Source: a bacterium
GTDB taxonomy: Bacteria > Auribacterota > Auribacteria > Auribacterales > Auribacteraceae
Reading direction: 5' to 3'
Assembly (NCBI GenBank): GCA_024233545.1
Contig: JACKPL010000004.1
Coordinates: 153,391-217,390, forward strand
DNA length: 64,000 nucleotides
Position 1 is the first letter of the stretch, and the number at the start of each line of letters is the position of its first letter. Shown here in pieces: positions 13,656 to 64,000 of the stretch. A program made the translations under genes and the position numbers. The notes under the pieces are model-generated. The model had not been told where the DNA came from, ran no database searches, and saw only the letters and a list, made by a program, of their open reading frames with translations.

Positions 13656-16600
13656 TTACTTGACTTTTATATACAATGGTTTCGATACTGCACTATTTCC
13701 GCTACGATCATACGCTTTGACCTCAACTTTTATCAATTCGCTGTTCGTATCTTTTGGAATCATATATGAGTATGCAAAAGTACCGACCTCACTATCGATT
13801 TGATAAACGCTTTCGTCATTCGCAAAAACTTCCACTTTTATAACACCTGCTGAATCATAAAAATCAACGAGCAGGTAGAGTGTCGTACCGGGTAAGTATC
13901 CATCAGCAAAACGAGCTGAACTTCCCGTAGAAATAACGCTTACATAAGGAGCATGTTTCTCAGCAACTACATCTCTGTCCCAATTAACATTATCGACCAT
14001 AATGGCTCCTTCAGCCTCATTATTAAATACTGTAAGGCTAATAGTACTATTGGAACCGGCATATTCTGCAACTGGAACGGAGAATCGCTTTGCTAGAGCT
14101 ACGATTTCTACCGCATCGTTGCTGGAAGCAGATGTCAACTCTACATCACCGCTATTGATTTTGACCATCATTTTTAGTGGGCCGTCAATGTCAATAGCAG
14201 AAGTATTAGTAATTGATACATAATAATCCATCGTTGAATTTGCCCGGTTGAAATGCCCTATTCGCTGTACAACGTTAAGCATCGGATCAATGATAGCTCT
14301 TTCACCCTCAACTTCACCTTCAATATTCATACTAAAATCAAACCGAACGCCAGCATTCAGCTTAAACGAAAGAAGGAATGTTACAGCCTCGCCACTATCC
14401 AATGCCGAATTAATAATAATATACGGATCAAGCAAAACGCCTGTTGTCTCAAGCTTACTATCGACCACAACAAACTCTTCTTGCCCGCCATTCGAACCCG
14501 CAAGATGAACAATGACTTTCGGTTCTTTAGATAAGCGCACTTCGCTATCCATCAGATATGACACATCAAATAATAGGTATCTTGATTCAGCCGGAACAAT
14601 AGCGTCATTGAGCCGCAAATACCCGTTTCCGTTAATCAAAGCGGAATAATTTCCTTCGATTGCTGATAAAGTATTGTACTCCCTAACAACGGATACTTGT
14701 CCTTCATATGCGAATCCTTCCAATGTCCCCGATTCAAATCCACCATTAATAATCGGCGGCACTTCTTGAACCTCATTTGAAGTACTGTCATCGTCACCCG
14801 GGGATAAATCCCCTTCACCGCCACCGCCACTTGTAATGGCAAATGGCATATGAGCATATAAGTTATCGTAATAATAATACTGAGGCCATTGATACAGTGC
14901 CCACAAATCAGTATCAATTTCTAAGTCAAACGCATGAATCTCATAATCTGATAATTCATATATGTTATTATAGAATAAAAATGTCGATTGAATACTTTCA
15001 ATTGAACTGCCCGGAAATTCCATATTTTCCGCATAGTATTTTATTACATACTTGTAATACCGCGACAGCTCGTATTCTCGGGTCAGCAACGTTTCAAACG
15101 TATCAACGACGGTGTCAGTACTATCATAGAATGTACCGTATACCTTTAAATAAATACCATAATTATAATAGGTAAGTTCCAAACGTACGGCATCAGCAAT
15201 ATTACCACCGTATCCGCCATAACCACCGTATCCGCCATAACCGCCTAATCCCAACTCATCATTGCCATCGCCAGGACCAAAAGTCAATGGACCACCGCCA
15301 TAACCACCATAACCACCCATATTCAGATCGATATAAATAACACCGGAATCCTCAAAATAAGTGATCTCCCTATATCCTAATGCATCATGCTGGATATATC
15401 CATATCCGCCATATAAAGCCATACTGAAGTAATACCCTCCACGATATGACCATCCGACATTCTCTATTCCCGGATTGATTCCATTGGTATCGATCATTTC
15501 CATATATTCTGAATAGAGTACATGTACTTCGTCGCCAATAACTTTCAGTGCACCATTGACAGTAAACTGACCATTCTGTCCGCTTAATATTTCATCAGAT
15601 GCAACAATATCATTCGTGCTTACCGGGAAACCGGACGGAATAATAGACAATGGTGTTAACCTCATGAGGAACAGTTTAAAGCTATAGACTTGTGTATCAT
15701 ATCGCGTGTAGAGAACAACCAATTCATTTTCATTATCGAATTCGCATTCAAGAGCGGTAAAATATGAACTCGTCCTACTTTGATTGTTAAATGATTGAAT
15801 CATACTCGTATCAATCATTGTTTCGCCGGTTGTTCCATTGATCATTTTGTAATACACTTCATAAATACTCGACGTGTTCGGATAACGAGTCCACACAGCA
15901 TGCACATTGCCATCGTTGTCAACCGCAATATCCAAAGCTTTCATGTATGCATAAGAAGAAGAAATCGATGTATCGGAATACAACGTCATTTCAGGGATAA
16001 GAACATTGCCGTCGTTATCTAATTTCGTATATTTAATACTCGCAAGATATGCGTTTCGATTATCTTCAATCCATGCAATATGCGCATTATCCGAATCATC
16101 AACATCAATTCGTGCACAATAATTGTAGGATATCGGATTACCGAGCCCGCCAGCATCCATGGCATTGAGAACCGTTGTGTTCGTAATGATCTCATTATCA
16201 ACGTCAACAACAACATGTTGCACATCGGGATCATAGAATAATGTATACACAAAATGCTGTCGGTCTCCGCTATCTTTGTCCGAATCAATTTGCTTCAATT
16301 TATAGCTCTGATAATAACTGAAATAGGACTCTAATTTCGTCTCAATTGGCATCGTACCATCATTATCTAAGAAGAAATAGGACAGATGCGGGCCTCCAGT
16401 TTGATCTTCATGTATCATTAACGTTCCAACGCCATTGCCTGAACGTTCAATAACCATTTGATAATACCGTTCACTTCCTGTAGTAGGTATTACAACCTGA
16501 TGGTAATCATCAGACTCAATTGTCTCATCTGTTCCGTCGATAAGAACTTCTATAACATCGGGAACGAATCCTGTCGAATCGGTATTGATATTTGCCGGAT

Positions 16601-17390
16601 TTAACCCGAAAGCTAATTCGTCGGCATCGGGTATACCATTCAAATTATTGTCAGACTGGAATGTTCCTTGAGCAACAAGCGCACCACCTTGCAAACTTAC
16701 CGTAAAAACAATAGATCCGAAATAGTTCAGATTACGTATGATGTACGGCTGTCCATCATTGAAATAAGTACCTTGTGCTTCATTATCCATTGTAACAATC
16801 ATCTGGCCTGATACATCATTGGTAATATCAATTCTCTTCCCATCCTGATACACACCGATAACTGAGAAACGCGCCCGATCATAAATCAGTGCATTAGCCG
16901 GTTCAATTTCGATAGATGAAATAGGAATAACCGTAACAGTAACCATCGAAGAAACTGTTGAATTTTGTGAAAGATCATAGGCAGTCGCCTCAAATTGATT
17001 ATTAGGATCGCCAAGTAGCGGTGTCGTAAAATAGCCAATATATGGTGCGTTAGAATCAAGAACACCATAATGGCCGATCCAATAAATAAGCATATGATCG
17101 ATTGCAAAATTATCTTCGGCTGTTGCCTCCATAATAATATCATCACCTGCATAAACCGGTCCTTCATTTATGGAGAAAACCTGTACATTATGCGGCGGCA
17201 CAGGATCCGGCTCAATAACTACGGTAACAGCTGTACTATTATATACATTCCCTGATAAATCAAAGGCATGTACTTCAATTATTGAATTGGTAATGCTTGA
17301 CACTGGAGGGAATATAGCATTAACAAAATATTGACCGCTATCATTACGAACCGCTACCGCATCATTATCGATGATCAGTTCGATAGTCAT
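13656..17390 (-). CDS. Giant-gene segment 5 (C-terminal), 1244 aa. It contains Ig-like (Big) domains, a CBM4_9-like NGGFE module (about 14250-14760) and a Gly-Tyr low-complexity linker. It ends in an Ig-like domain with no recognisable sorting signal. It has no signal peptide, and its ATG lies only 11 nt after the previous segment's stop, so it is probably a frame-shifted continuation.
   Basis: ORF translation. Ig-like patterns (A.D..GN.S......V.V) recur throughout. The frame opens at 17408, only 4 nt before the upstream segment's stop. Confidence 0.8.
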   Translation of the reverse strand: MTIELIIDNDAVAVRNDSGQYFVNAIFPPVSSITNSIIEVHAFDLSGNVYNSTAVTVVIEPDPVPPHNVQVFSINEGPVYAGDDIIMEATAEDNFAIDHMLIYWIGHYGVLDSNAPYIGYFTTPLLGDPNNQFEATAYDLSQNSTVSSMVTVTVIPISSIEIEPANALIYDRARFSVIGVYQDGKRIDITNDVSGQMIVTMDNEAQGTYFNDGQPYIIRNLNYFGSIVFTVSLQGGALVAQGTFQSDNNLNGIPDADELAFGLNPANINTDSTGFVPDVIEVLIDGTDETIESDDYHQVVIPTTGSERYYQMVIERSGNGVGTLMIHEDQTGGPHLSYFFLDNDGTMPIETKLESYFSYYQSYKLKQIDSDKDSGDRQHFVYTLFYDPDVQHVVVDVDNEIITNTTVLNAMDAGGLGNPISYNYCARIDVDDSDNAHIAWIEDNRNAYLASIKYTKLDNDGNVLIPEMTLYSDTSISSSYAYMKALDIAVDNDGNVHAVWTRYPNTSSIYEVYYKMINGTTGETMIDTSMIQSFNNQSRTSSYFTALECEFDNENELVVLYTRYDTQVYSFKLFLMRLTPLSIIPSGFPVSTNDIVASDEILSGQNGQFTVNGALKVIGDEVHVLYSEYMEMIDTNGINPGIENVGWSYRGGYYFSMALYGGYGYIQHDALGYREITYFEDSGVIYIDLNMGGYGGYGGGPLTFGPGDGNDELGLGGYGGYGGYGGYGGNIADAVRLELTYYNYGIYLKVYGTFYDSTDTVVDTFETLLTREYELSRYYKYVIKYYAENMEFPGSSIESIQSTFLFYNNIYELSDYEIHAFDLEIDTDLWALYQWPQYYYYDNLYAHMPFAITSGGGGEGDLSPGDDDSTSNEVQEVPPIINGGFESGTLEGFAYEGQVSVVREYNTLSAIEGNYSALINGNGYLRLNDAIVPAESRYLLFDVSYLMDSEVRLSKEPKVIVHLAGSNGGQEEFVVVDSKLETTGVLLDPYIIINSALDSGEAVTFLLSFKLNAGVRFDFSMNIEGEVEGERAIIDPMLNVVQRIGHFNRANSTMDYYVSITNTSAIDIDGPLKMMVKINSGDVELTSASSNDAVEIVALAKRFSVPVAEYAGSNSTISLTVFNNEAEGAIMVDNVNWDRDVVAEKHAPYVSVISTGSSARFADGYLPGTTLYLLVDFYDSAGVIKVEVFANDESVYQIDSEVGTFAYSYMIPKDTNSELIKVEVKAYDRSGNSAVSKPLYIKVK
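15190..15330 (-). repeat. Low-complexity Gly-Tyr repeat (GGYGGYGGGPLTFGPGDGNDELGLGGYGGYGGYGGYGG) inside giant-gene segment 5
   Basis: Plus-strand repeats of accaccgtatccgccataacc. Confidence 0.8.
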
Positions 17391-17401
17391 GTTATCGCCC
17401 G

Positions 17402-20400
17402 TTACGCGTCAAATGGGATCAATACGGAGCTTTCGCCGCCAATATAATGGCGGTCATTGATATCAGCCGGTAAATCCAGTTCGACTGTTGGAGCGCCTCC
17501 AAGATCATGATATATATTCACAATCGCCGCTTCTCCCGATTGAACAATCAGTTGATTGCCATAAATATAGCAATCGGTAATCTGATATTCAATTGGTACA
17601 TTAGTAAATTGAGAAACAGAACCAAGTACTATTTCCGAACCCAGAGAGGATGTATCAAGGAAAAACACATCGTTCATACCATGTATAACCGTAAAATCGC
17701 CAATTGAATCAATACCCATAGGCATTTCTCCATCCAAATCGTCTATGAGAATGAAAGCTGGCGTACCAAAACTTAATGGCGTTTGGGTAATTCCTACTGA
17801 GAACAACCCACCGATTTCGTCTGTCGCATATAAGACGGAATCTTTAACTTCCAAATCGCCAAAATCCGGTAATGGAGCTTCTGGAGCAGGTGTATAAAGC
17901 GTAATTGTCTGCAACAGTTCAAGGTTATCCAGTTCATACACATGAATTTGTCCCCTGCGGGTCAAGCGGTATAGATTGTCTTCAGTTGCTTCCAACGCAA
18001 GTGTCCCGCTGTCATTGTCCTCTATTCCCGGCAATACTACAGGCGAATTCGGGAACCGTACATTGAGTACCCACACACCATCGTCATGGCCGACATATGC
18101 CCGATCGCCATTAAGCAATATAACGCCTTCACGGTTCTCTATCGTTTCATCATCCAACTGAATCTGCGCCTTAAGATTGAAATCATACGGATCGAAGCTA
18201 GCGCCCATTACAATAAATTGCGTAGATGACCAGCCGCTATAAGTGCCGACACCGTAGATAAAGCCATTTTCGACAACAAAATGATACAATGAATAAGGAT
18301 TTGCAGTCGAAGTATATACCAACCTATTCGCTGTTGATATTCTCGGCACGTTTCCAAGGAACGAAAGCTCGCTACCTGCAAACTCAAGTTCCCCGCCAAT
18401 ACCTGTTTCACCTACACCAGACTCACCTTCTCCCCCTCCACCGGGTATAAGCGAACTAATATCATATACTTCTAGAATCTGATACGAGGTAATATATAGT
18501 TTATCGTCAAGAACATACGTATCATAGACGTCGCGATCATCATATCCGGCAGTCGGCTCTGCTTCAAAGAGCAGATTAACTTGTACCGATATCTTACTTG
18601 AACGATTGCCGGCATAATCCTGAGCAATTACTCCAACAGTCATTGGATCAGAATAGACGTTTACCGGTATAACAATCGGACGGTCAAATGTTCCGTCTTC
18701 TTCCGGTGAAAGAACATCAATGATATCGTTATCGAAGTAGATTTCAATAATCTCAACCATGGATTGTGTCCCGGAATTATCCGTTGACACCCCTATAACA
18801 TCTACCCACGATCCGCCGATTACCGTTTGTCCGGCAATAGGTTCGGTCATGGTTACAGCAGGAGCTTCAGTATCATCAAGTATGGTTATTGCAATCTTAT
18901 CGCTTCGTCCGATATTACCGAACATATCTTTCGCCCGAACCTCGATAGTTAACACATCGGAAGCACCATCAATGATCGGCAACCTCTTAAGAATGGTAAG
19001 CGACGACTGGCCATTGGCATTTATCGTTTCAGCCTTGATATTATTGTAGAACATTTCAATAGCATCAATGTTTTCATCAACTGCAGATATTTGTATAGAT
19101 AATAAATGCCCTTCAAAATACGATTCATTATCAAGCGGCGAGACGATCGTAACAACCGGCACAGCAACATCCGGCAACAATTTATTGATTCTGCCGAATA
19201 CCGCAACAGGGCCTGCAACACTATTCTGCGCGACAACCGTTCCGGTTTCCACATCAATTTTTGCAATGAGATTATCCGCTTTTGAAAACACAAACAATGC
19301 ATTCTCGATTGTATCAAACTGTAATCTATCCGGTGATGGCACAGACCATGAATCCACTTCATTCAGTGTTGTCGGGTCGAATACCAGAATAGTGTCATTA
19401 TCCGGCAGAGCGGCAAGTATCCGTTCTGAGCCGGAGATAACAACCGATTCAATACTCGATATCTCAGAATCAACTGTTCTAAATAATCCAGCCGCTGATG
19501 TAAACGGGCCAGTATCAATTCTTGCTATCTCATATTGGTTTGCAGACTGATAAAAGCGTCCGACATACAAGATATTACCTGCCTGATTCAGATTAATCGC
19601 TGTTCCTCTGTATGCACTTGCAGATGTAAAACCTGTTAATGATCCGTTTCCTGTAGTCAGGTCATAGTTGGTAATACGAGAACACCAATAACTTGGATGT
19701 GACCCATCCTCATACCCATATTCCGCAATATATATTCTTCCATCAGGTGCGGTTACCGTACCTCGAGCACCCCTGATATACTGGTAGCCATACGGAGATG
19801 TAGACGGTGAATCGATATTCATTACCGTAACATAATCAAATGGATATTCAGGGAATAACAACGCAAACAACTGTGAGTTTTGTTCAGCCAACTCTACAGT
19901 TTGCGTGCGGAAATACTGGTTGCCGGTTCGATAGCTGAATACCTGTGCATTAAAATCAACCATTCCAAGTTGTTCACGCTCGCTTTGCGTATCATACATC
20001 GCGATAAACAACTGATCGCGTTGTTGATGATATTTTGCATCGGTTGCGACAAAATTAACTCCGGTTGATATTCCTAAATCTCCCGCTATCAAGGTATTGG
20101 TATCTAAATCAAATAGAGCGCCAGCATTATTGACCATCAAAAGTTGATTATAGTCGCTTCGAACGACTGTCAAAGCCACAGAATCAGACGTCATTAACCC
20201 TGCATAGTCAACTGCAATAACCTCAATTGTCGCCGATGCTTCAAGCGCATCTTCCTCAATCGGAATTGATGTTTGGTAAGGAGCTCCTCCAAGGTTGAGA
20301 TAGGCTTCGGTTCCTAAGAATTTTACAGGAACTCCATTATACAACACTTGGACAAATTTAATGTTATCGGTGGCATCACTTATTTCGACATTAAGTACGA

Positions 20401-23400
20401 CGAATGAATCAGCATAGGCTGTTTCGTTATCCTCTGGAATAACGATTGACACAACCGGCGCATCGGTATCATTAAGAACAGTTACTGTCTGCGGCGCCGA
20501 TTGAGCCCTGATTCCCGAAACATCTGTTACTTGAGCATATACTTCAAACGACGCAACATCAACAGGAACTCTATAAGTAAATGAATATGGTCCAACGATT
20601 TTCTCTTCAAAACGTTCGCCATTGATATACAATGATACATTTCGTATGCCGATGCTCGAAGTCGGAAGCGCAGTAAATGTCAATGCCGTCCCTTCTGTCG
20701 CGCTGGAAGGCACACCATTCAACACAATCGAAGGAGGCACAGTATCAAAAATTGTCAACAGGTGATAATCGACATCTCTTGTTCCGATAGGCATAGCGAT
20801 ATCTTCAATATTCTTTGTTGCTATTTCAATCTTCCGAATATAATTATTACTGGTTGCCATATAGAGATACCTGCCGTCATCGCTTATATCCATAGCATAG
20901 ATTGACGGCAATGAAGCCATATCAAGCCAGAGTTCCGCTTCACCTGTTTCAGGGTTATACATATAAATGTCATCAGGCGAATCATAGAACATGAATACGC
21001 GGAGCCCCATAGGTGTCAACCCGCCAACAGGATACTGGCCGCCGACATTAGTTTTTATTTGTGTAAATGAGGTCGATGCCGTATCAATCTCATACAATGT
21101 ACCATTATTATTCGTATTGGTAATATATGCCTTATTGCCGTATGGCAACATAACCATCTCATAATCCAAACCGACTCCTGACGAATCGCTATACCTTTTC
21201 ACTTCTGAATAATCGTCCAGATTAAATACCAGTATTCTGGAATAGGTCGGGTCAGAATAAGTGAACGATTGATTGCTTACATACAAATACTGTCCATCCG
21301 GAGTTACCACAACACTCCACGGATAATAGAGGCGGGTTCCCGTATTTGACGTAGTAATTTGATGAACAACAGTAAGGCTTTCCAGAGAAACAACCATAAC
21401 CTTATTATTATACGCACTTGTAATATATGCGAGTTTCCTTACCGCATCAAATGCAATGTCACGCGGCCCATCAAATCCATCGGAATAGGTGAAAACCTTA
21501 ACAATTTCACGGGTAAATTTATTGAACACAATTACTTCGTCATTTCCTTGACGGAATAAGAACCCATACTGCAAGGGTGATATCTTTATGTAATCTGCAT
21601 TATTGATTAACAATTCAGTTGTCGCATGCGTTATGTCATCAGTGACAAATAATCTGTAAGCTGACGTATAAGCTATTGAGAATAATTTGCCTTGTTTTAC
21701 AAATGTCTCTGGGCTTGTTATACCGTTAAGTATATTCGACAGATCGCTCACATTACCAGCGCCGTCAACCGCAACCGCAGTAATTGTAAACACCTGACTA
21801 TTCGATACATTATCGTCAAGATACAATATTGTCTGATAAGGCGGTACAGTAGCTACCGCTGTCGAGCTGTTTACCCCATCAAAAAGGGTGTATTCCACAC
21901 GGCTGATCGATGCGTTGTCTTGCGCATTGGCGGTTACGACAACCGGCATTCCCGCGTTTACACCCACTAAATCGGTTACCGCGGCGATCGTTACGGTCGG
22001 TGCTATGCTATCGTCAACAACAGTTATTGTAATAATTGAGCTCAATGCTGAGTTCCCTGCAAAATCATACGCTTTCGCTTGAATCTCGAAAGGCGTTGCT
22101 CCTGATGGAACATTTCCTACAAACGGGAAGGCAAACGGTGTTTGAGCATCAGTTCCAAGCAAGCCGCCATTGAGGTAGTATTCAACAAATTCTACTCCTT
22201 GATTATCGTCAACAGTTGCGACCAAGGACACCTCTTCTCCGACAAGATATGATTCTTTTACCGGATCAGCGGCAAGTTCGATAGTCGGATTTACTGCATC
22301 AGTTGCCGTACTCATCAATATCCTGCGATAAATACCCGAAGTCGGATAGTACGTATGCGACCAGTCACTGGTTTTAATAACGCTGTACCCTGTATTAGAC
22401 TGATAGTAAACAAATAAATACTTACCATCAGGAGTAAAGTCCGAATCCATAGGCACATATGGTAATGAAACGTTGGCAATAGATGTATAACTATCAGAAC
22501 TGAGCCCACCTTCTATCTTCCTGATATATATGATGTTTGAAGACCTATAGGCAATAGCCATTACCGAAAGGGTGTCGCTTACTTTTCCAATGGAGATATT
22601 ACCGTTATTAACATTAATATCTACGTTGTAATAGTTGGATCCAGTATCTGCATGGAACTTTCTATAGTCGTCAGTTGAGTAAGGCATGTAGATTAAATCA
22701 TTGGTACCATCAAAATAATTCTCCACATCCCATCCATAATTCATAGCGATTGCTGAAGGCAATGAACCAGTCGATTCAAGATTCGTTACCGTCCATCTTC
22801 TGGAATAATACGTACTTGAATTATACGTAGACGGCGAAGCCGCCCATAACGTATTTCCGCTGTGGCTCAACGCCAAATTCACCCTTACATATTCACCTGA
22901 GTTATTATACAAAGACGGCCCGTCGTAGCTGGTTGTGAAAATCGGGTCTCCGGTGCTTTCAGGATCAATACATACAGGAATATCAAGCACCACAATCTTG
23001 CTATTTCCAGTAGGTGATGAGGAAGAAGAATTCCACTCGGTGGATACGTATGCAAAACGGTCATTCTTATCGATAACGATTGATGAGAACCGTCCTTTAA
23101 ATGTTCCTGTATCATCAATTTCACGAACCAATGTGCCTTGAGGCATTTTGTATACGCGAATCTTATTAAATGACTGTGATGTGGAAGCTGATAGAGCAAA
23201 CAAGTATTCTCCATCGTGAGTCGATGCCATGTCGGTAAATTGTCCGCTGTTTGTTCCACCCGGCGCATTAAGAACCGATGTCATCCCGTTAAAATCGAGA
23301 CGGTGTATTTCGCGCTGATTATACGAAGCGGCAACAATTATGTCAAATACCGGTTCTAGCACATTTAAAGTAATAGAAGTTGATGCTGAATTGCCAACCG

Positions 23401-26400
23401 AGTCAATTACGGTAACTGCAATAACAGAATCTTCTCCGATAACACCATTATCAAGACGGAATGTTGCCGCCGTGAATGGCGGTTGAGTAACCGGCTCTTC
23501 AGCACGGTCATTAACACTGATTTGCACTTGAGCAATACCACCGTCATCGGTAATATCAAGAGCAAGTGTAACAAGCGAATTCAAGCGTGCATCCGAACCG
23601 TGAGCCGGCGAAAGGATAGCCACATTCGGGGCTTGCGTGTCTGCCACTACTCCATAAGTAACAGGTACCATTGCAGTAGTATTCCCTGCCGCATCACGCG
23701 CAACAGCCCTCACAACAATACTTTGTCCTTCACCGGTGAACGCCGGTACCTGCATTTGAATCGGATACGATGGCGCTACGGTAGAAATACCCATGGATTC
23801 ATTATCCAAGAGCAATTCGACCTGTTGCAGTACAAAATTATCCGTCGCATTAAACGCTACATTCACTCGTTTCCCTTCGACCAATTCAGTGCCTTGAACC
23901 GGCGAAGTAACGAAAATTGTCGGCGGAACATTGTCAAACATTTTTCCAGAATACATTGGTCCATAATTATAATTTGTCGACTCTATTCGGATGATCGGCA
24001 GTAACGTGACCGAATCAACAACGTCTGTTGCGCCGGAACTGCTGGCATCGCCATTAAAGAACAACGCTTTGCCGTCCGGTGTCAATTCGCCAAAATCCGC
24101 ATCATAAAGGTCAAGGCTGACTGTTGCCTCAACTTGCAGAGTATCAGCATTGATCTTGTAGATGGTTTCAGGCCCGGTAACAGTAACAACAAATGCTTTC
24201 GGCCCTTCGGGCGTATATCCTGCCGCAACAGCATATGAACTGCTGTTTAATGCTATAACTTTTTCCACACTTAAGGTATCGAGATTGATAATAAACAATC
24301 TGCTGTTTCGAGTCGACACAAACGCATACGGCGAACCTGCTATGGTTGCAACTTCATACGGTGTATACTGCGATGTTGTGCCCGGTTCAATGGTCGGTAT
24401 ATTTTTGATAATCATACCGTTCACCGCATTCATTACCGTAATGCCGCGTTCCGTACCGGAATGGTTACAAACCAAGATATATTTTTCGTCAGCAGAACGG
24501 AATAAACGTTCCGGTTGGTCAATAGTCTGAAAATCGGATATGGAGAACAGATAGTTAAAACCGGTGTGGCCAAGTGTATCAAATACATCTATCTTATCAT
24601 GGTTAGGACGAGCACAGAACAACAAGTCTTCGTTTTTGGATAACATAAGCGCTCTGGAATAGATGTCATATGTCCCTGTATATTCGTAATCCTGTTCTCG
24701 GTTTCCATTCAAAAGGTTAAAACGATACAATCTCCCGTAATAATCCGTTCGAGCCGTATACGCTTTTTTACCATCTTTTGTAGCAACAATATTGTATGGG
24801 TAATACGAATTGCCGCTTCCATAATCTGCAATTCGCTTATAGGATTTTGCATCAAAGACAGTAAATGTATAGGCACCGTAATTAGGTTTAAGAATAACAT
24901 CCATAAGAAATGGTTTCGAAGCAACCGTGAGAGATACAACACTGCTTACTGCCTGATTGCCGTTTTCATCAAAGGCGCGAGCATAAAGATCAAGTACGGC
25001 TCCCTCGTTTTCCGATAACCTTAACCCAAAGTCATACGGCGCTTGGGTATCGTTGTCAAATAATGCGCCGTTAATATAAAGTTCGACAAGGGCGACCCCT
25101 GCATTATCTGTTGCCGCCACATTGACAAACAATACATCGGTAGCGCCGATTTTATTTCCTGTAGCATTTGTACTGGCAATTGAAACTATCGGAGCAGTAT
25201 TATCGGGAACCACATCAACAAGAATCTGGTCTGACGCGGATGCTCCGCCAAAAGTAAATGCTTCAACTTCTATTACAACATCATTAAGCGGTGTAGATAC
25301 ATCGGGTAATGTAATGGTTGTTTCAAACGGCGGCGTATGCATGATATTGACTACAGTGCCGTCAATTTTAAAATGCATATCCGATACCACTTTCGGGTTA
25401 CTGACATCAACTTTGACAAGCAGTTTTGCACGCGAGGTGTACGTACCCGGCAATGGCGATACCATAGAAACCGTAAACGGTATAACCGCTGATTGATCGG
25501 GTGTTAATAAATATCCAACACCGTTTTCTCCATAAACCGAATACAGCTTTTTAATAATAGTAAAAGAATCAATATCGACAATTGATAACTCGCCCACTCC
25601 ATTTGTCGTTGTTGCAACAAGTAATTTGGTCGGATCAGACTGGGGCACTGTTAGACTCGCAATGTCTCCAAACCCACTCAATGTTGCCATTACTGTATCT
25701 GTCTTGGGATCGATCTTAAAAATAGTATTTTGAGTATCGCTTGCAATAGGTACATAACCTTGCGATGACACACCAGATACTAGGTTTTCAAGGTCATATG
25801 TCAGAGGAATTATCGTTACAAACTGTTTAGTAGCCATATTCATGACTTGGATATCTTCACTGTAATAAGTCGCAAAATAGGCTTTGGTTCCATCTGCAGG
25901 AATTGTAACTTTCCGCAGTGTTTCATTGTTCTGGCTTGGAAATGTCTGAGTGGCCTGCGAAATCAGATTGACTACTGCAATGGTATTCGAGTTATTGATT
26001 GTATAAATCTCTGTCCCATCAGGCGAAATATCCATATCGTAACCGTTAGTTGGTACATAAATAAAACTTTGCATGGTATCAGTCTGAGTATTAATCAGGT
26101 TGATTGTAGTGTTATAATCGAGAACGTATGCCAGATTGAGTTCTGGTTTGAATATGGCTTCCCACTGATTTGTTCCGTTATAAGAAGTAGCCATATTTAT
26201 TGTCTTTACATTATATGTCAACGGATCAATAGCATACATACCTCGTACATTTCCTGAAGCAACATAGATACGGCTTCCGTCAGGCGAAATATCAACTTTA
26301 TTGGCAGAAGTAACCGGAATTGTTGCCTCTATAACTCCAGTCTCAACATTGATAACCGAAACGCTATTCGCACTGGAATTCGGTGAAAGAATTCGGGCAA

Positions 26401-29400
26401 CGAGCGGTACATCAATAGTAATTGTTACAGAATCTGTACCAATATTGCCTGTCATGTCATATGCAGTAACTTCAATTGTTGCTGATTGGTTTGTCATTGA
26501 AGCAGGAATACGAAGGAGCACTTCCCGCTGATCGCTATCGATTACAATCGGCACACCGCCGCTTAGCGTTACCTGAATTGCATCAATACTGCCGCCTATC
26601 GATGATGAATCATCCGCAGTAAACGTAACCAAAACATTGCTGTTTGCATAGACTGTATCATTATCTTCCGGTGAGATAATTGATACAACAGGCGGTGCAG
26701 TATCTTCAAGTACTGACAAATTAACCGGTAAGGATTCGCCGACATTTCCTAACCAATCTGTTGCCCGCAGCTTGATTGAGATATTCGACGCATCGGTAAC
26801 TCTCGGAATCAATACCGATCCTGCAAACGGCAATTCAGGGTCTGTATCAGCCAACAAGACTTGGAAACCTGTTCCGTAATCCATCAGCAGTTCTACCGAC
26901 CGAATAGGCAGAGCATCAAGGATTGAAGCTTCGACAATAAGTTCTATATTTTCGGATACAGATGTTCCATCTAAAGGCGATGTTATAGCAATTACCGGAG
27001 CATCTCTATCATCAGGTATATTGATAACCTGAGTTGCAGTAGAAATACTGTTGTTGAAGAGGTCTCGTGCACGTAACGAGATTGAAAAATCAGTTCCGAA
27101 TTCTTCAGGGCTGACTGGAATACTCATAGTAAATGCCGGGCCTTTTGCCGAATCGAGAGACCTGCCGTTTACAATAAGTTCGACCGTTGCCTGATCGTCA
27201 TCACTCGCTGTTCCCGTAACCACTATCGCATCATTGTCAAACATTATATTTGTAGCCCCAAATACCGGCATACCTTTTCCGACACCAAAATCAAATTCTG
27301 TTAATGTAGTGCTTGAAGACAATCGCGAAACATATACATAATATCCGTGCACTTTAACCGTTTCACACGATGAATTGAGTGTCCATTGAGTCACTAAATC
27401 CAACGACGGGAGCGAATAGACATCAAGACGATCGTATTTTACTTGATAGAGATAATTACCGAATACATCAATACCATCAGAATCTTTTCCAGTATCCGAC
27501 AAATAAAGTATTCTTGTTGGAGTTGCCTTGCTTGTATTGAGATCAAATACAACTATCCCGTAATAATCTATACTTGCATAAAGCTTGTTGTCTTTAATAG
27601 CCAAGCCGTTATGATTATTACTGCTTTGAGTGTCAAGCTGTGCTAATTCCTGCATGTTTGCAGGGTTGCTGACGTTATATGAGAATAATGCATCCTGATC
27701 GCCAACGTACAAATAATTCTTAGTATTATCCAGTATGGCTGAATACGGAAAATCATTTGTCGGGCGAACAAGAGATTGGATAAAAACGGGGTTTTCTCTA
27801 TCAGAAATATCGTAAGAAACAATACTATTGTTATATATCGTAAACAACGTATCATTTCCATTATATACAGCGAAATAAGCATTAAGAGAGATTACTTTAA
27901 CTCGTCTAATCTTTGTGGGCTCGCTAATATCAAATATGTACATCCCGCCTCCATCACTCGGCGCATAGAGATAATCGCCGGCGATAGCAAAATGATATAC
28001 ATATCTGCTGTCCATTGTATCTTGGCTGACTAAATTAAACGTACCGATATCAACAACGCGTATACCGCTACTGCCGCCAAGAAACGCATACTGTCCTCGT
28101 ATCTCAAACCACTCGCAATTTGTAATGTTTATTGAGCGAGTCTGCCCATTGAAAATGAACGCAGGATTAAGCTCGACTACTGCTTCTGAACTTAACAATT
28201 CATCATCAGTCACAATGACATTCAATGAAAGCGGTTCATCCAAATCAGAGTTTGCTACAGTAAAATTCACACTTACCGATGTCGGCGTACCGGGATCGCC
28301 GGTATAGGAATTGTTGTAATAGATTTGCGATCCATTCTGCAATACTTCTATGGTATTGATCGAAGGTGTAAGCCCAAGGTCTTTCACCCTGAATTGCAAT
28401 GTATGAACTGCACCCGCCCTAATGATGTCTCCATCTTCATGCGAAGTAATCTTAACTACGGGGGCGCCATTTTGAGAAGTGGTAATCGTTACGTCAACAG
28501 CATCGCCTTGGTTTCCGGCGACATCGTATGGCGTTACGGTAAACACATTATCGGTCAATAACCCGTTTATTCCAAAGTTAGTTTCAAACGTTACTAAATT
28601 GAGATCAGACCACCCATCCGGTACAGGAAGAGTCACTATATCGAGAGGTTCAGCGCTTCCGCCGGAACCGATTTCAATCTTATCAACCCAAACAGTATCT
28701 CTTCCACTGCATACACTGCCGTCTTTGTAATACATAAACTGTAAATTATGCGTTCCAACAGTTAACGGAGTGCTAAAGAATGTCCATCCCGAATAACCGC
28801 CAACATTGAGCACTAAATTACCATCAACATATAATCGCAATTTATCACAGCATGATTCTGTTTCGAGCTTGTAATAGAACGATATTGTCGTTGCTTCAGG
28901 AATATCAACGGTCAAGAACATCGAACTGTTTTGACTATCCGTTAAAGATGTTGGGCCTTGAGCTGAATACGACCCTTCATATTTTTCGTCAGTAGTAATA
29001 TTCCAGAATCTGTTAGAACTGCCGGTGAATGTCCAAGCTTGTGCGCTGAAATCGCCGGTTTCAAAATCATCAGAATACCCTTGAGAAGGCATAACAAATG
29101 CGGTTTCATCAAAATCAATGACGATATGGTCGACCGCAATATTATCGGTAACCGTAATCGCAACATCAAGCAGTTCGCCGACTGTTCCTTGAGTATCCCC
29201 TGTAACATTCTGGACAACAGGATTGATGGTATCTTCACCGATATTCAATGTGATTAACGATGTATACCCAACATTTCCGCTTAAATCCATTACGCGGGCC
29301 TGCATAGTTACCGAACCGGCATTTTGTGCATAATAGTACAGTTCATAAGGCGGCACAAAATCTTTCTTGTATGGTTTTCCGTCAACAAGAAATTCTACCG

Positions 29401-29644
29401 TCACCGCATCTTTGTTTGTGACATCAACTTCAACGATCGCCGTATCATCGAGTAAAATGGTGTCATTGTCAGAATGCGATACGATGTTTGCTATCGGTGC
29501 ACCAGTTTCAAACGCATTCAATTCATATACACGCACACCATTATTATAATTACAGACAAAAAGCAGATTACCGTATATATCCATGTTGCGGAAAGTGTTG
29601 CTTCCAGAAATTGTACCGAGCAGTTTAATATTATTGCGAATAGC
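17402..29644 (-). CDS. Giant-gene segment 4, 4060 aa from the ATG at 29584. The frame is open and repeat-like back to a TAA at 29645-29647. It has an N-terminal LVIVD-type repeat and no signal peptide, then Ig-like domains and a MAM/CBM-like jelly-roll with Cys pairs (about 28640-29075). At least three YVTN-type beta-propeller repeat arrays follow, interleaved with tandem Ig-like domains.
   Basis: ORF translation. YVTN repeats include DISPDGSRIYVASGNVRGMYAIDPLT, LAYVLDYNTTINLINTQTD, EIYTINNSNTIAVVNLISQ. The in-frame sequence upstream of the ATG (AIRNNIKLLGTISGSNTFRN-MDIYGNLLFVCNYNNGVRVYEL) continues the LVIVD-like repeat. Confidence 0.8.
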   Translation of the reverse strand, partial: AIRNNIKLLGTISGSNTFRNMDIYGNLLFVCNYNNGVRVYELNAFETGAPIANIVSHSDNDTILLDDTAIVEVDVTNKDAVTVEFLVDGKPYKKDFVPPYELYYYAQNAGSVTMQARVMDLSGNVGYTSLITLNIGEDTINPVVQNVTGDTQGTVGELLDVAITVTDNIAVDHIVIDFDETAFVMPSQGYSDDFETGDFSAQAWTFTGSSNRFWNITTDEKYEGSYSAQGPTSLTDSQNSSMFLTVDIPEATTISFYYKLETESCCDKLRLYVDGNLVLNVGGYSGWTFFSTPLTVGTHNLQFMYYKDGSVCSGRDTVWVDKIEIGSGGSAEPLDIVTLPVPDGWSDLNLVTFETNFGINGLLTDNVFTVTPYDVAGNQGDAVDVTITTSQNGAPVVKITSHEDGDIIRAGAVHTLQFRVKDLGLTPSINTIEVLQNGSQIYYNNSYTGDPGTPTSVSVNFTVANSDLDEPLSLNVIVTDDELLSSEAVVELNPAFIFNGQTRSINITNCEWFEIRGQYAFLGGSSGIRVVDIGTFNLVSQDTMDSRYVYHFAIAGDYLYAPSDGGGMYIFDISEPTKIRRVKVISLNAYFAVYNGNDTLFTIYNNSIVSYDISDRENPVFIQSLVRPTNDFPYSAILDNTKNYLYVGDQDALFSYNVSNPANMQELAQLDTQSSNNHNGLAIKDNKLYASIDYYGIVVFDLNTSKATPTRILYLSDTGKDSDGIDVFGNYLYQVKYDRLDVYSLPSLDLVTQWTLNSSCETVKVHGYYVYVSRLSSSTTLTEFDFGVGKGMPVFGATNIMFDNDAIVVTGTASDDDQATVELIVNGRSLDSAKGPAFTMSIPVSPEEFGTDFSISLRARDLFNNSISTATQVINIPDDRDAPVIAITSPLDGTSVSENIELIVEASILDALPIRSVELLMDYGTGFQVLLADTDPELPFAGSVLIPRVTDASNISIKLRATDWLGNVGESLPVNLSVLEDTAPPVVSIISPEDNDTVYANSNVLVTFTADDSSSIGGSIDAIQVTLSGGVPIVIDSDQREVLLRIPASMTNQSATIEVTAYDMTGNIGTDSVTITIDVPLVARILSPNSSANSVSVINVETGVIEATIPVTSANKVDISPDGSRIYVASGNVRGMYAIDPLTYNVKTINMATSYNGTNQWEAIFKPELNLAYVLDYNTTINLINTQTDTMQSFIYVPTNGYDMDISPDGTEIYTINNSNTIAVVNLISQATQTFPSQNNETLRKVTIPADGTKAYFATYYSEDIQVMNMATKQFVTIIPLTYDLENLVSGVSSQGYVPIASDTQNTIFKIDPKTDTVMATLSGFGDIASLTVPQSDPTKLLVATTTNGVGELSIVDIDSFTIIKKLYSVYGENGVGYLLTPDQSAVIPFTVSMVSPLPGTYTSRAKLLVKVDVSNPKVVSDMHFKIDGTVVNIMHTPPFETTITLPDVSTPLNDVVIEVEAFTFGGASASDQILVDVVPDNTAPIVSIASTNATGNKIGATDVLFVNVAATDNAGVALVELYINGALFDNDTQAPYDFGLRLSENEGAVLDLYARAFDENGNQAVSSVVSLTVASKPFLMDVILKPNYGAYTFTVFDAKSYKRIADYGSGNSYYPYNIVATKDGKKAYTARTDYYGRLYRFNLLNGNREQDYEYTGTYDIYSRALMLSKNEDLLFCARPNHDKIDVFDTLGHTGFNYLFSISDFQTIDQPERLFRSADEKYILVCNHSGTERGITVMNAVNGMIIKNIPTIEPGTTSQYTPYEVATIAGSPYAFVSTRNSRLFIINLDTLSVEKVIALNSSSYAVAAGYTPEGPKAFVVTVTGPETIYKINADTLQVEATVSLDLYDADFGELTPDGKALFFNGDASSSGATDVVDSVTLLPIIRIESTNYNYGPMYSGKMFDNVPPTIFVTSPVQGTELVEGKRVNVAFNATDNFVLQQVELLLDNESMGISTVAPSYPIQMQVPAFTGEGQSIVVRAVARDAAGNTTAMVPVTYGVVADTQAPNVAILSPAHGSDARLNSLVTLALDITDDGGIAQVQISVNDRAEEPVTQPPFTAATFRLDNGVIGEDSVIAVTVIDSVGNSASTSITLNVLEPVFDIIVAASYNQREIHRLDFNGMTSVLNAPGGTNSGQFTDMASTHDGEYLFALSASTSQSFNKIRVYKMPQGTLVREIDDTGTFKGRFSSIVIDKNDRFAYVSTEWNSSSSSPTGNSKIVVLDIPVCIDPESTGDPIFTTSYDGPSLYNNSGEYVRVNLALSHSGNTLWAASPSTYNSSTYYSRRWTVTNLESTGSLPSAIAMNYGWDVENYFDGTNDLIYMPYSTDDYRKFHADTGSNYYNVDINVNNGNISIGKVSDTLSVMAIAYRSSNIIYIRKIEGGLSSDSYTSIANVSLPYVPMDSDFTPDGKYLFVYYQSNTGYSVIKTSDWSHTYYPTSGIYRRILMSTATDAVNPTIELAADPVKESYLVGEEVSLVATVDDNQGVEFVEYYLNGGLLGTDAQTPFAFPFVGNVPSGATPFEIQAKAYDFAGNSALSSIITITVVDDSIAPTVTIAAVTDLVGVNAGMPVVVTANAQDNASISRVEYTLFDGVNSSTAVATVPPYQTILYLDDNVSNSQVFTITAVAVDGAGNVSDLSNILNGITSPETFVKQGKLFSIAYTSAYRLFVTDDITHATTELLINNADYIKISPLQYGFLFRQGNDEVIVFNKFTREIVKVFTYSDGFDGPRDIAFDAVRKLAYITSAYNNKVMVVSLESLTVVHQITTSNTGTRLYYPWSVVVTPDGQYLYVSNQSFTYSDPTYSRILVFNLDDYSEVKRYSDSSGVGLDYEMVMLPYGNKAYITNTNNNGTLYEIDTASTSFTQIKTNVGGQYPVGGLTPMGLRVFMFYDSPDDIYMYNPETGEAELWLDMASLPSIYAMDISDDGRYLYMATSNNYIRKIEIATKNIEDIAMPIGTRDVDYHLLTIFDTVPPSIVLNGVPSSATEGTALTFTALPTSSIGIRNVSLYINGERFEEKIVGPYSFTYRVPVDVASFEVYAQVTDVSGIRAQSAPQTVTVLNDTDAPVVSIVIPEDNETAYADSFVVLNVEISDATDNIKFVQVLYNGVPVKFLGTEAYLNLGGAPYQTSIPIEEDALEASATIEVIAVDYAGLMTSDSVALTVVRSDYNQLLMVNNAGALFDLDTNTLIAGDLGISTGVNFVATDAKYHQQRDQLFIAMYDTQSEREQLGMVDFNAQVFSYRTGNQYFRTQTVELAEQNSQLFALLFPEYPFDYVTVMNIDSPSTSPYGYQYIRGARGTVTAPDGRIYIAEYGYEDGSHPSYWCSRITNYDLTTGNGSLTGFTSASAYRGTAINLNQAGNILYVGRFYQSANQYEIARIDTGPFTSAAGLFRTVDSEISSIESVVISGSERILAALPDNDTILVFDPTTLNEVDSWSVPSPDRLQFDTIENALFVFSKADNLIAKIDVETGTVVAQNSVAGPVAVFGRINKLLPDVAVPVVTIVSPLDNESYFEGHLLSIQISAVDENIDAIEMFYNNIKAETINANGQSSLTILKRLPIIDGASDVLTIEVRAKDMFGNIGRSDKIAITILDDTEAPAVTMTEPIAGQTVIGGSWVDVIGVSTDNSGTQSMVEIIEIYFDNDIIDVLSPEEDGTFDRPIVIPVNVYSDPMTVGVIAQDYAGNRSSKISVQVNLLFEAEPTAGYDDRDVYDTYVLDDKLYITSYQILEVYDISSLIPGGGGEGESGVGETGIGGELEFAGSELSFLGNVPRISTANRLVYTSTANPYSLYHFVVENGFIYGVGTYSGWSSTQFIVMGASFDPYDFNLKAQIQLDDETIENREGVILLNGDRAYVGHDDGVWVLNVRFPNSPVVLPGIEDNDSGTLALEATEDNLYRLTRRGQIHVYELDNLELLQTITLYTPAPEAPLPDFGDLEVKDSVLYATDEIGGLFSVGITQTPLSFGTPAFILIDDLDGEMPMGIDSIGDFTVIHGMNDVFFLDTSSLGSEIVLGSVSQFTNVPIEYQITDCYIYGNQLIVQSGEAAIVNIYHDLGGAPTVELDLPADINDRHYIGGESSVLIPFDA

Positions 29645-30090
29645 TTAGCATCCCATACAGCAATACCGGTTAGCGTTGAGTTGCTCGAAACAAATGCAAT
29701 ATCGCCGATTGATAACAGACCGCCCCATTGATAATTGTGTCCTGATGGGGATTCGGTATCAACCCATGATCCCGTAGCAGTAGCGCTTGCGCCTCGCGCA
29801 TCAGCAACAGCTATCCGGCTACTTCCTACAACCAACACATAGTCGCTATCTAACGCCTGCAGATACCGAGTATAGTAATAATAACTATTGTTCAACCAGT
29901 TATTTGTCGTTCCTGACAGCGTTTCGACATCAGAAATATCTGCATTTAACAATGAGAAATACGGATTGGAATACTCACCTGTCCAATATGCCATATTGCC
30001 TTCCAACCATACACCAAATGCATAATATGAGCTGGTTTTACTGCTGTAGTATTTCGCTCGCCGACATAACGGTAAGACAACGTAGGCACG
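29645..30090 (-). CDS. Giant-gene bridging segment 3, in the third reading frame (track ORF 29518-30006, 162 aa, starting at TTG). It carries protein-like LVIVD-type sequence and connects segment 2 to segment 4 through two frame changes.
   Basis: The frame-C translation is ...YAFGVWLEGNMAYWTGEYSNPYFSLLNADISDVETL...DSDYVLVVGSSRIAVADARGAS...IAFVSSNSTLTGIAVWDAK. It is protein-like precisely where the flanking ORFs' own frames turn into non-domain-like text. Confidence 0.65.
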
Positions 30091-33000
30091 GTCGGATTCG
30101 TATAATTCACATTTGAAATATCGAGCACCTGTAGTTGATGCCTGTATGCCGCCGTAAAAGCATACTGTCCGCGCACTTTAACATCATACACATTTCCATT
30201 TGTACCGAAATTATGAGTTCCGACATGAACAGGCTGAACCGGGTTCGCAATATAATACGTACCCAATCCGGAAGATGCGCGGGCAACATAGACAAAATCA
30301 CCTTGATAATCAATATTATGAGCGGCTGTCGTAGAGAAAGTACTTTGCGACCTGTTGATGAGATCAATCACCGCTAAACTTGAATTGTTTGCCACATACA
30401 TCCACTTCGGCGACACAGTTGTCGGTAAACTGGATTGATTCGTAACAGGATCACCGACCACATACACATCTTCTGCGGCAAATGATCCGCCGGTAACACT
30501 TCCATTGTTGTACAGACGGTATAATTCGCCCGAATTAGTGATTTCCCTGATAGCAAAAGTGGTAATGAGTTCAACAGGCGCAGTAATGGTGAAATTATCA
30601 CTGATATCTTCAGCACGCACTTTAAGCTCTGTAGTGTGGCCTGCATTCCCGGGGACAGTCAAGGAATACGAATAAGGAGTGGTTGTATCGGTAAACACTA
30701 ATGCACCGTCAACAAAGAATTCTACTGCGCTAATTAAACCGCTATCTTGTACATTCGCTTCAATTGACACCACTGATAGCCCTGCAATAACTTCTAACCC
30801 GTTAACCGGTGATGTTATTGTAACCGACGGCGCCGATAAGTCATCAGTCACCGCAAAAGACTTTTCAGCTAAGAGAGTTACATTGCCGTTAATATCCTGC
30901 ACTGCGCCCGATATCACGAGCGGAAGAGGAGGATTGCCCAAAGGCAATGGCACGTTTTGAATAGTGAACGGCGGTTTATTAAATAATGTTTGTACGCCGT
31001 TGACATTAACTGTAACAACCTGAATACCTAGATTGTCCTGAGCCGATATATCGACCGTAGTTGTTGTTCCTTCAAGGAGGAACTTATCATCGGTAGGCTG
31101 AATAATACTTATAACAGGAGATTCATTATCTTCCAAAACAGTAACAGCAACTTCCAGTGCTGATGTGAACGTAATATTTCCACCCAAATCAATAGCATTT
31201 GCATTGATAAGAAGCGTTGAAGGCCCGCTGTTCGGGGCAGTAAGATAATCGAATTGGAATGGAACAGTATTATCTACTGCGACCACTTCACCATTAACAA
31301 GAAATTCGATAGTAACGCCAGTATCATCTGTTGCAGAAGCGGTCAACAGGATTGAATTGCCTTCAATGACTTGAGTCGGCACAACGCTAACGGATTGAAT
31401 TTGCGGAGCTTCCAACTGGCCGCTGATAAGCCTCAGCAATCGTATTCCGCTGGTATCGTTAGCAATATATGCAATGTCGCCAACCACATCGATATCAATA
31501 GCATCAGCTCCGGTACTTGCATTTCCTACTAATGTCATCTCAAATGGATTCTCAACGTTAACCATTGCTATTCCATTTGTTCGGTCTGAAACAAAGGCGA
31601 TAGAACCGACAACATCCACGTATTGTGTTTGACTTAATCGATTAGGACCGGATAACTTGCGCGCCAATCCCATACCGATTAATTCTGCAGTTTGCTCTTT
31701 AAGCTGATATGACAACAAACCAATACCATAATCGGCAATATATACAATATTGTTATTGATACTGATTCCTCGCGCATCGCCGGAAGTGTCGTAGGTATTT
31801 TTTAATACCGGTGAACGAGGGTTACTTATATCGATTGTAGCCATACCATTTGTACCTTGAGTCAATATAAGCACATTACCTTGAATTGCTATTTTCTTCG
31901 GCCCTGTTACCGATATTTGCGAACCTGAAATTTCAAATGGCGTTGCAGGGTTATTTAAATCAAGCACGGTTAATTTATTTGCCGTTTCATCTGAAACAAA
32001 AGCAAACTGGCCGCGAACCTGTACATCATTAGCGCTTGAGAATATATTTCCCGTCTCGCCAATAAATTCCAATTCTTCATTTTCAAACCTGAAAATCACA
32101 AAATTCGTAGATGTTATTGCATATATTGTATTTTGAATGACTACCAGATCACTAATAGTATACGTTGCATCACTCGTAACAAGGCTGATATTGAGCGGAT
32201 CGGATATATTCAATACAACCAAGCCGCCTGCACCGTCAGCAACGAACGCATAATCGCCGACTACTCTCATATGAGTTGCATCAGTCGTCGGGAAATCAGC
32301 TAAAAATTCTGTACTAATGATAATATCAAGAGTAATCGGTGCAGATATTCCAACTTGCCCTACCGAATCGATCGCTTTAGCACGGATATCTACCACAGCG
32401 CTTCCCGTACCGTTTGGTATCTTGACTGTACCGGCATAAGGTGCAGTTGTATCGACTACTGATGCGCTGTCGTTATCCTGAACACCATCAACAAAAACGA
32501 AGAACCGAACGCTTTGTATTTGCCCGACATCGTCTGATGCATCTGCCGTTGCAGTAATTTCCGAACCGGACGCAACAACGGTATAAACAGGTGGAGAGGT
32601 CACAACCACATTCGGCGGCAAATCGCCCGTAATGGTTCCTGTAATAGTCACCACCGTACTAGAATCTCCTGCATCGTCTGTTGCGAAAACAGATATTGTC
32701 ATGGTCTCGCCTTCAGCTGTCGCAGGGATAGGATAATTACTCACTGTATACGGCGAAGAATTTCTCACAAATTGCTGAGTAATCGGCGCACCGGCTCCTT
32801 GAGATATCTCAATATCAATTGTAACTGATCCGATTAGCGGAATCTGGTTATTATTGACATCTTGGTCATACGCAAAAGCCTGAATGGTAAGAACATCACC
32901 TTCAGTAACCTCAAAACCATTAACCGGCGCAAGGAATCCCGCAATCGGCGGTATATTAGTTAGCGCGTTTACCGTTGCAGTGGCAGTACTGGACACCATC

Positions 33001-63997: not shown

Positions 63998-64000
63998 AAT

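Follow-up and report, generated by a model that had tools for sequence, protein, structure and literature searches.

In a 64,000-nt window of a bacterial contig (GenBank assembly GCA_024233545.1, contig JACKPL010000004.1, positions 153,391 to 217,390), two long open reading frames (ORFs) of the minus strand meet at window positions 17402-17411, where the frame of one (segment 4) ends in a stop codon and an ATG that could start the next (segment 5) follows a few nucleotides on. This arrangement raises the question of whether two genes adjoin here or whether a single gene has been thrown out of frame. An earlier note on the window (the whole 64,000-nt stretch, whose numbering is used throughout) had proposed that a small insertion or deletion (indel) split one ORF. 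This core interpretation was supported by repeat profiles, structure modelling and comparison with homologs, and the junction is very probably a frameshift break within one giant adhesin-like gene rather than a gene boundary.

Layout of the junction

Direct reading of the minus strand around the junction gave ...ATC CCA TTT GAC GCG TAA CGG GCG ATA ACA TGA.... In the segment-4 frame this yields the tail ...LIPFDA and then the TAA, while the segment-5 frame reads T TGA CGC GTA ACG GGC GAT AAC ATG, with the residues R-V-T-G-D-N encoded after the TGA and ahead of the ATG (codon positions in Table 1). The spacer from stop to ATG measures 11 nt (CGGGCGATAAC). A three-frame scan of the minus strand found the segment-4 frame (frame 0) open to 17405 and the segment-5 frame (frame 2) open from 17408; both are open together only over the 4 nt CGCG at 17408-17405. 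On re-reading of the sequence, the coordinates given in the earlier note for the stop, the restart, the spacer and this 4-nt overlap were all correct. The junction sequence as assembled is GACGCGTAA, and a possible in-frame counterpart would be ...TTTGACGTAACG.... Geometry alone cannot tell a frameshift from two genes at this junction, but the evidence from domains and orthologs can.

An immunoglobulin-like domain across the junction

A hidden Markov model (HMM) of 96 positions was trained on 49 internal repeats, with the junction copy left out. Segment 5 alone matched only positions 39-94 of this profile (22.6 bits), while the fused sequence ...FDA+VTGDNM... matched positions 1-94 (23.8 bits). 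As the segment-5 match begins at position 39 of 96, segment 5 starts in the middle of a domain; complete and separate domains on either side of the junction, which the earlier note had named, together with independent translation of segment 5, as the observation that would speak against a split ORF, were not found. A jackhmmer run that included the fused sequence (48 bits, positions 1-94) was discarded as circular and was redone without the junction.

The suggestion that one immunoglobulin (Ig)-like domain is completed across the junction agreed with the predicted fold. AlphaFold2, run on the 104 residues of the fusion with the internal repeats as alignment, returned one complete Ig-like beta-sandwich (predicted local distance difference test score, pLDDT, 85.9; predicted template modelling score, pTM, 0.74). 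The segment-4 tail (17494-17405) contributes strands A and A' and most of strand B, and the segment-5 head (17405-17211) supplies the rest of B and strands C to G; strand B, at residues 28-36 (SVLIPFDAV), spans the break. With a control alignment that held no family information for residues 1-40, short strands were predicted at about the same three places but less confidently, with a pLDDT of 58-68. Foldseek neighbours of the model were Fn3-like and bacterial Ig modules, over 98-112 alignment columns, and included Salmonella SiiE (2yn3), Marinomonas primoryensis MpIBP (4kdv) and the Fn3-like modules of CbhA. A very long chain of Ig/Fn3-like sandwich domains is a feature in common with the adhesins SiiE and MpIBP; the repeats here differ in being of the Big_7, TIG and Big_5 types interleaved with LVIVD/lactonase-type propellers, and the likeness is one of fold only, at 15-23% identity. 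Many sister repeats of the junction copy pass the Pfam Big_7 threshold, with whole-segment E-values from 1.7e-15 to 7.5e-126.

The order of domains in segment 4 leads to the same expectation. Each of its modules consists of a propeller of approximately 350-400 aa and, after it, Ig-like domains, of which most modules have two; the last propeller ends approximately 30 residues ahead of the TAA. From this pattern an Ig domain is expected to start at the end of segment 4 and to run into segment 5, with a second Ig domain next; the expected second domain was found at segment-5 residues 74-160. By the homolog alignment given below, the end of segment 4 and the beginning of segment 5 belong to a single conserved domain.

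Homologs at the junction

Segment-5 residues 150-1244 served as the query of a full HMMER scan against 1.84 billion representative proteins, which identified the long homologs P0003 (7267 aa, E = 9e-103), P0005 (5523 aa, E = 2e-92) and P0006 (680 aa). In all three the match lies at the C-terminus and corresponds to the C-terminus of segment 5. P0005, which is cut by the end of its contig, is encoded in locus L081 (JGI 3300007351, Ga0104751_1002621, positions 81-26652), and this locus was compared with positions 718-30791 of the window. The P0005 gene lies directly upstream of trpC-trpF-trpB-trpA-manC-ruvX-U32-M16-rpe and a large ORF. In the window, genes for tRNA-His, SulP and a DMT-like protein are inserted between the giant gene and trpC, and ruvX and U32 are missing. 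The two TrpB proteins are 72% identical, and the G+C content is 42.3% in the P0005 contig versus 41.8% here. The common neighbourhood identifies P0005 as a syntenic ortholog.

By tblastn, P0005 residues 550-4295 aligned with 28699-17411 in the segment-4 frame and residues 4297-5523 with 17405-13659 in the segment-5 frame, and P0005 is also collinear through two further frame breaks of the gene (junctions 2 and 3, below). P0003, P0005 and P0006 are all unbroken and in frame at the position equivalent to the junction. The window sequence LDLPADINDRHYIGGESSVLIPFDA and, after the break, VTGDNMTIELIIDN aligns with LVLPENDEDRHY-ESSSVVEIPF-LISGTNATVELLVDG of P0005, ...HITY-LVMGTNPTVELMLDG of P0003 and LVLPDNEDERIC-ATGAVYDIPY-SVSGLNPTIELFVGG of P0006; in short form, IPF-LISGTN-ATVELL of the homolog stands against IPFDA, stop, (R)VTGDN-MTIELI of the window. 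Invariant columns lie on both sides of the break, and the codons for two of these residues, G60 and N62 (of TGDN), fall in the stretch from the TGA to the ATG. Opposite the junction Met (M63), P0005 has Ala and P0003 and P0006 have Pro, and by this alignment the ATG at 17390 is not a conserved start.

P0006 (L084, Logan SRR31636559, 4114-6156) comprises the end of a propeller, an intact Ig domain of the junction type, the shared C-terminal module and the final Ig domain. As P0006 stands alone, the C-terminal cassette exists also as a small independent protein. Other searches were less productive. When all of segment 5 was used in a word-indexed protein search, only two repeat-level matches were returned and the true orthologs were missed; the same type of search gave no match to the junction. 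No matches were obtained for the fused junction or for alignment A3 in protein-to-DNA searches of genome and metagenome DNA collections, nor for segment 5 and TrpB in exact-sequence look-ups.

Initiation and recoding signals

The 11-nt spacer contains no Shine-Dalgarno-like purine run, while runs of the AGGA/GGAG type were seen ahead of rpe, M16, trpB and a 980-aa ORF (ORF980) of the same window. No terminator-like site was found at the junction, and promoter-like matches there were no commoner than in shuffles. The N-terminus of segment 5 (MTIELIIDNDAVAVRNDSG) is acidic and has no hydrophobic core. The earlier statements that the spacer holds no convincing ribosome-binding site and that segment 5 lacks a signal peptide were thus upheld.

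These results bear on the possibility that two or more genuine genes are present, with segment 5 translated from the ATG at 17390 by termination-reinitiation within an operon that encodes large surface proteins. A stop separated by 11 nt from an ATG is a typical geometry of coupling, which recurs at 35090-35078, the 4-nt window is improbable for a random frameshift, and segment 5 is under purifying selection (below). Nevertheless, such a gene would lack a ribosome-binding site and would begin three strands short, at position 39 of 96 of an Ig domain, with invariant residues left ahead of an ATG whose Met is Ala or Pro in homologs. One ORF runs through this point in the syntenic ortholog and likewise in two other homologs. 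Downstream of junctions 2 and 3 the pieces open in mid-repeat, and the first start-type codon after junction 2 lies 16 codons in. Separate genes are for these reasons considered highly improbable.

Programmed recoding, by which a -1 shift or a 2-nt hop at each junction would make one giant polypeptide, could explain why the downstream frames are open and constrained and why the same direction of shift is needed at all four junctions of the gene. As in programmed -1 frameshifting of dnaX and of IS3-family transposases, two frames overlap on one strand and the downstream one is the -1 frame. In contrast to those systems, no slippery heptamer, stimulatory structure or conservation in orthologs is present. 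No X XXY YYZ heptamer occurs in TTT GAC GCG TAA or anywhere in the permitted windows 17405-17411 and 35093-35108; the TTTAAAT in the second of these is in the wrong register. The predicted fold of the RNA at 17425-17290 has a minimum free energy of -29.1 kcal/mol versus a shuffle mean of -30.5 kcal/mol (z = 0.39) and is not unusual, and no motif common to the four sites was found. An RF2-like +1 site (ATT TGA C) was considered and rejected because it acts in the wrong direction. The orthologs are in frame at the three junctions that they cover, so the shift is not conserved, and a -1 shift would add a residue that is absent from all homologs. We know of no established precedent for 2-nt hops in bacteria. 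Recoding at these sites is regarded as the least credible of the explanations, with a negligible chance of being correct.

Size of the indel

The alignment with P0005 places residue 4295 (F) at the TTT of 17413-17411 and residue 4297 at the GTA of 17405-17403, so that a single residue faces 5 nt (GACGC). This break (junction 4) and junctions 2 and 3, three of the four in all, each show the codon count of the ortholog plus 2 nt in the window (Table 1). When the fusion is modelled as a 1-nt loss, a one-column gap appears exactly at the break against all three homologs. One-residue gaps in which the window has the extra residue account for only 32 of approximately 5190 aligned columns, and since 1-nt losses would need such a rare extra residue at each break, 2-nt insertions are moderately favoured, a preference tempered by how rare 2-nt events are in general. 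At junction 4 a 2-nt insertion (CGCG from CG; ACGT to ACGCGT) appears somewhat more likely than a single-base loss, and we infer the exact size of the indel from these alignments. Of the earlier proposal that a single-base indel near 17405-17408 split one ORF, the split is borne out by homologs and domain, and a single base appears somewhat less likely than a 2-nt insertion.

In the proposed course of events, an insertion of CG at the end of strand B would have changed ...TTT GAC GTA ACG... (F-D-V-T) to ...TTTGACGCGTAACG..., the alternative being the loss of one base. The shift would put a pre-existing out-of-frame TAA into the upstream frame, and a pre-existing out-of-frame TGA would close the downstream frame. 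The ATG 11 nt on would be an internal Met codon, and the stop-and-restart a by-product and not a designed gene boundary. Depletion of ACGCGT as a restriction or methylation motif was looked for and rejected (5 occurrences observed versus 5.2 expected). An intact gene would yield the bridging tryptic peptide HYIGGESSVLIPFDVTGDNMTIELIIDNDAVAVR or its FDAV version, while an independent start would yield the Met peptide MTIELIIDNDAVAVR.

Evidence against a frameshift

Several results weigh against a simple frameshift within one domain. Single-base deletions simulated at every position of the ORF left a jointly open window with a median of 65 nt, and only 0.66% of them produced one that did not exceed 4 nt. 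The tightness at the junction is unusual even for a frameshift, under any model. The earlier argument that this geometry is unlikely for independent genes proved to be weak: a stop a few codons ahead of a start is common at 42% G+C, and a 4-nt window is improbable under a random frameshift too. The N-terminal half of the domain adds only approximately 1 bit in the full repeat profile. Against an HMM of the N-terminal repeat halves the segment-4 tail scored approximately 0 bits, like null windows and shuffles and without bettering half of the null windows, and no Pfam family was detected in the fused 599 aa at E ≤ 1, the junction copy staying below the threshold of Big_7 (PF17957). As the tail is not recognised by the paralog profile, its assignment to the domain draws on the homolog alignment and the structure model. 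No break lies at a long homopolymer, and runs of at least 5 nt are clean in the flanking genes (86 runs) and in the giant gene (88 runs) alike. Insertions of 2 nt are uncommon both as error and as mutation, and the ancestral nucleotides are inferred from orthologs that are approximately 30-50% identical across the giant gene.

The giant gene and its other frame breaks

Five long abutting open stretches were found on the minus strand by the three-frame scan, segments 4 and 5 being the last two (Table 1). Each transition corresponds to 1 nt missing or 2 nt extra, and all four breaks thus shift the frame in one direction. There are no in-frame stops in the five stretches, across approximately 16,800 codons. 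Within the window (13656-64000, minus strand) the joined ORF spans at least 16,782 codons, with its 5' end beyond 64000; neither the N-terminus nor a signal peptide of the giant protein is visible within the window. Big_7, TIG and Big_5 Ig-like domains, LVIVD repeats and lactonase-type seven-bladed propellers were detected by Pfam throughout the five stretches, and 49 Ig-like copies were matched by the profile made from the gene's own repeats. The joined ORF is predicted to encode an extracellular, adhesin-like protein of beta-propellers and approximately 50 Ig-like domains. No RTX, type I secretion signal or other anchor was identified in the giant protein as seen in the window.

Segment 5 runs from the completed Ig domain through a second Ig domain, a blade-repeat propeller, a Gly/Tyr-rich stretch and a C-terminal module common to P0003, P0005 and P0006 to a final Ig domain. 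The propeller blades at segment-5 residues of approximately 300-600 (window 15500-16500) carry the motif VDxxxNxHIAWxDxRxGNxEIYYxKLDxxGNxL. The HMMER scan yielded 181 proteins at E ≤ 0.001, and most of them matched this blade stretch (query positions of approximately 270-390). The Gly/Tyr-rich low-complexity stretch (GGYGGYGGYGGYGG) occupies residues of approximately 700-730, roughly at 15200-15300.

The sister junction described in the earlier note (junction 1) does have a like geometry, with a TAA at 35092-35090, a TGA at 35111-35109 and a TTG at 35078; the junctions at 35090 and 17402 both have 11-nt stop-to-start spacers. Junction 1 is outside the homolog coverage, and the LVIVD spacing there fits a loss from T4 to T3 better. 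The ORF scan alone confines the frame changes of junctions 2 and 3 to 30177-29949 and 29644-29521, respectively. A blastx comparison with internal paralogs failed to localise these two junctions further, and the orthologs did so. Insertion of CG at all four junctions was considered and rejected, as at junction 3 the CGC encodes a conserved Arg and the surplus bases fall within GCTAAGCTATT.

Table 1. Features of the junction and of the giant gene in window coordinates, with codons of the window and of P0005 where compared
Feature	Position	Strand	Window	P0005	Remarks
Frameshift site GACGCG (junction 4)	17405..17410	-	ATC CCA TTT GAC [GC] GTA ACG GGC GAT AAC ATG	ATT CCA TTC CTT ATC TCT GGA ACG AAT GCC	Frame change must lie here; most likely a 2-nt CG/GC insertion, alternatively a 1-nt loss
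TAA ending the segment-4 frame	17402..17404	-			Out-of-frame triplet put in frame by the putative shift
TGA closing the segment-5 frame upstream	17409..17411	-			Out of frame in the intact gene: TT-TGA-C within TTT GAC
ATG taken as segment-5 start	17388..17390	-			Probable internal Met of Ig-like domain, start not conserved
Ig-like (Big_7-like) beta-sandwich domain straddling the junction	17211..17494	-			Predicted from repeat HMM, AlphaFold2, Foldseek and homolog alignment
Open stretch 1	35093..64000	-			9636 codons; runs off window end; TIG, Big_5, LVIVD, Big_7 and F5/8-C domains
Open stretch 2	29949..35108	-			1720 codons; Big_7 and LVIVD repeats
Open stretch 3	29521..30177	-			219 codons; homology to P0005 residues 245-381 in the part from junction 2 to junction 3
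Open stretch 4 (segment 4)	17405..29644	-			4080 codons; beta-propellers (LVIVD or lactonase-like) in seven blocks, with Ig-like domains after each
Open stretch 5 (segment 5)	13659..17408	-			1250 codons, ended by a stop at 13656-13658; C-terminal portion of the giant protein
Junction 1 (sister)	35093..35108	-			Inside LVIVD propeller blade, NGNYLYAAANEEGVYI, stop, then ..IYLNKNTLTQ; TTT(T) at 35094-35092 a plausible 1-nt loss
Junction 2	30052..30059 (~30055-30056)	-	GGC GAG [CG] AAA TAC TAC AGC AGT AAA	GGT GAA AAA TAT TAC AGC AGT AAA	GAG [CG] AAA opposite GAA AAA (VGE-KYYSSK), no residue between
Junction 3	29639..29649	-	GAT + 11 nt + CGC	GAT + 3 codons + AGG	3 residues of the ortholog face 11 nt (GCTAAGCTATT); CGC of a conserved Arg follows at 29638-29636

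Origin of the frame breaks

A single 537-nt contig (L083; GCA_033101815.1, JAWMAM010002015.1) from a very fragmented NCBI assembly represents a close relative and aligns without gaps to 16168-16704, at 86% nucleotide and 89% amino acid identity. Over its 178 codons, the Nei-Gojobori method gave a nonsynonymous rate (dN) of 0.051 and a synonymous rate (dS) of 0.755 for segment 5. The resulting dN/dS of 0.067 indicates strong protein-level selection on segment 5 in its present frame until very recently, and together with the complete lack of in-frame stops it excludes an old, decaying pseudogene. Consensus or assembly error on the one hand and very recent real mutation on the other are rated about equally likely as the source of the breaks.

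Precedent for the first of these comes from the study of West-Roberts et al. (2023, bioRxiv 10.1101/2023.11.21.568195), which reports that single-base indels in Nanopore and PacBio assemblies threw giant genes out of frame and that the correction of a local Illumina error merged two adjacent giant genes into one of 74,983 aa. The present gene resembles those in that a very long ORF is shown as neighbouring ORFs of one strand in different frames. It differs in that the breaks lie off long homopolymers, that three of the four look like a 2-nt excess against the ortholog, and that the organism is not demonstrably one of the Omnitrophota, the closest TrpB matches among GTDB genomes being Nitrospirota and Acidobacteriota metagenome-assembled genomes at no more than 69% identity.

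Under this explanation the four indels would be errors and the gene would be intact in the organism. Four breaks in approximately 50 kb come without one in-frame nonsense codon, the dN/dS is low downstream of all four, the orthologs are intact, the breaks share one direction of shift, and none of them lies outside the giant gene, the 11.4 kb of coding sequence next to it being clean. At approximately one break per 12.5 kb, however, none in the 11.4-kb flank is not significant, and an apparent 2-nt excess is not the usual type of long-read error. Homopolymer-type long-read error was disfavoured, as all 174 runs of at least 5 nt are free of errors and no break lies at any of them. A possible route to such errors is a consensus over a mixture of strains that differ by in-frame codon indels in a hypervariable gene for a surface protein, in which part of a 3-nt insertion was kept. 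The chance of assembly error is put at a little under even. Homopolymer runs of at least 6 nt number 44 in the 13.4-kb flank (1-13400) and 10 in the 50-kb giant gene (13659-64000).

If the indels are real, they would have to be very recent, and the giant gene would be undergoing inactivation or truncation within this strain or population, possibly as the loss of a costly surface protein under relaxed or negative selection. The clean homopolymer tracts suggest an accurate assembly, 2-nt insertions outside homopolymers look more like mutation than like read error, and the adjoining 980-aa ORF and the housekeeping genes are intact. Against this, four independent frameshifts without a nonsense substitution and with a dN/dS of 0.067 require that all are very recent, and once the first break (at approximately 35100) had lifted selection, nothing would keep the 7,000 codons downstream of it open. 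Real mutation is given a chance somewhat short of one half. Frameshifted pseudogenes of large surface and adhesin genes are a general phenomenon in bacteria. The present gene shares with them an indel in a repeat domain, an intact ortholog elsewhere and the lack of start signals after the break, and it differs from them in showing no accumulated decay, with its low dN/dS and its lack of nonsense codons.

The intact flanking genes encode tRNA-His (13444-13518), a SulP transporter, a small DMT-like protein, trpC, trpF, trpB, trpA, manC, an M16 peptidase and rpe. ORF980, at 718-3660 on the minus strand, encodes a secreted repeat protein with an N-terminal hydrophobic segment and repeats of the form ...AELDNxGNxxxxTSF..., and a large ORF occupies the same place after rpe in the P0005 locus.

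It is very unlikely that the four frame changes are both real and tolerated, whether by reassembly of the polypeptides, with the split Ig domain completed in trans, or by recoding at each site. If this were true, the low dN/dS would reflect continued expression, and a giant surface protein would depend on multiple non-canonical frame changes.

Implications

With a frameshift break as the preferred reading, the junction is ordinary in kind and shows no new mechanism. For annotation, the five ORFs of 13656-64000 are best merged into a single gene, flagged as frameshifted, which has at least 16,782 codons and continues past the window; a description of segment 5 as a protein of its own should be avoided. 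Breaks that are real would mark the very recent inactivation of a costly surface protein, which is of modest population-genetic interest. If the frame is intact in the organism, the gene would be among the larger bacterial genes known, and one with a syntenic ortholog.

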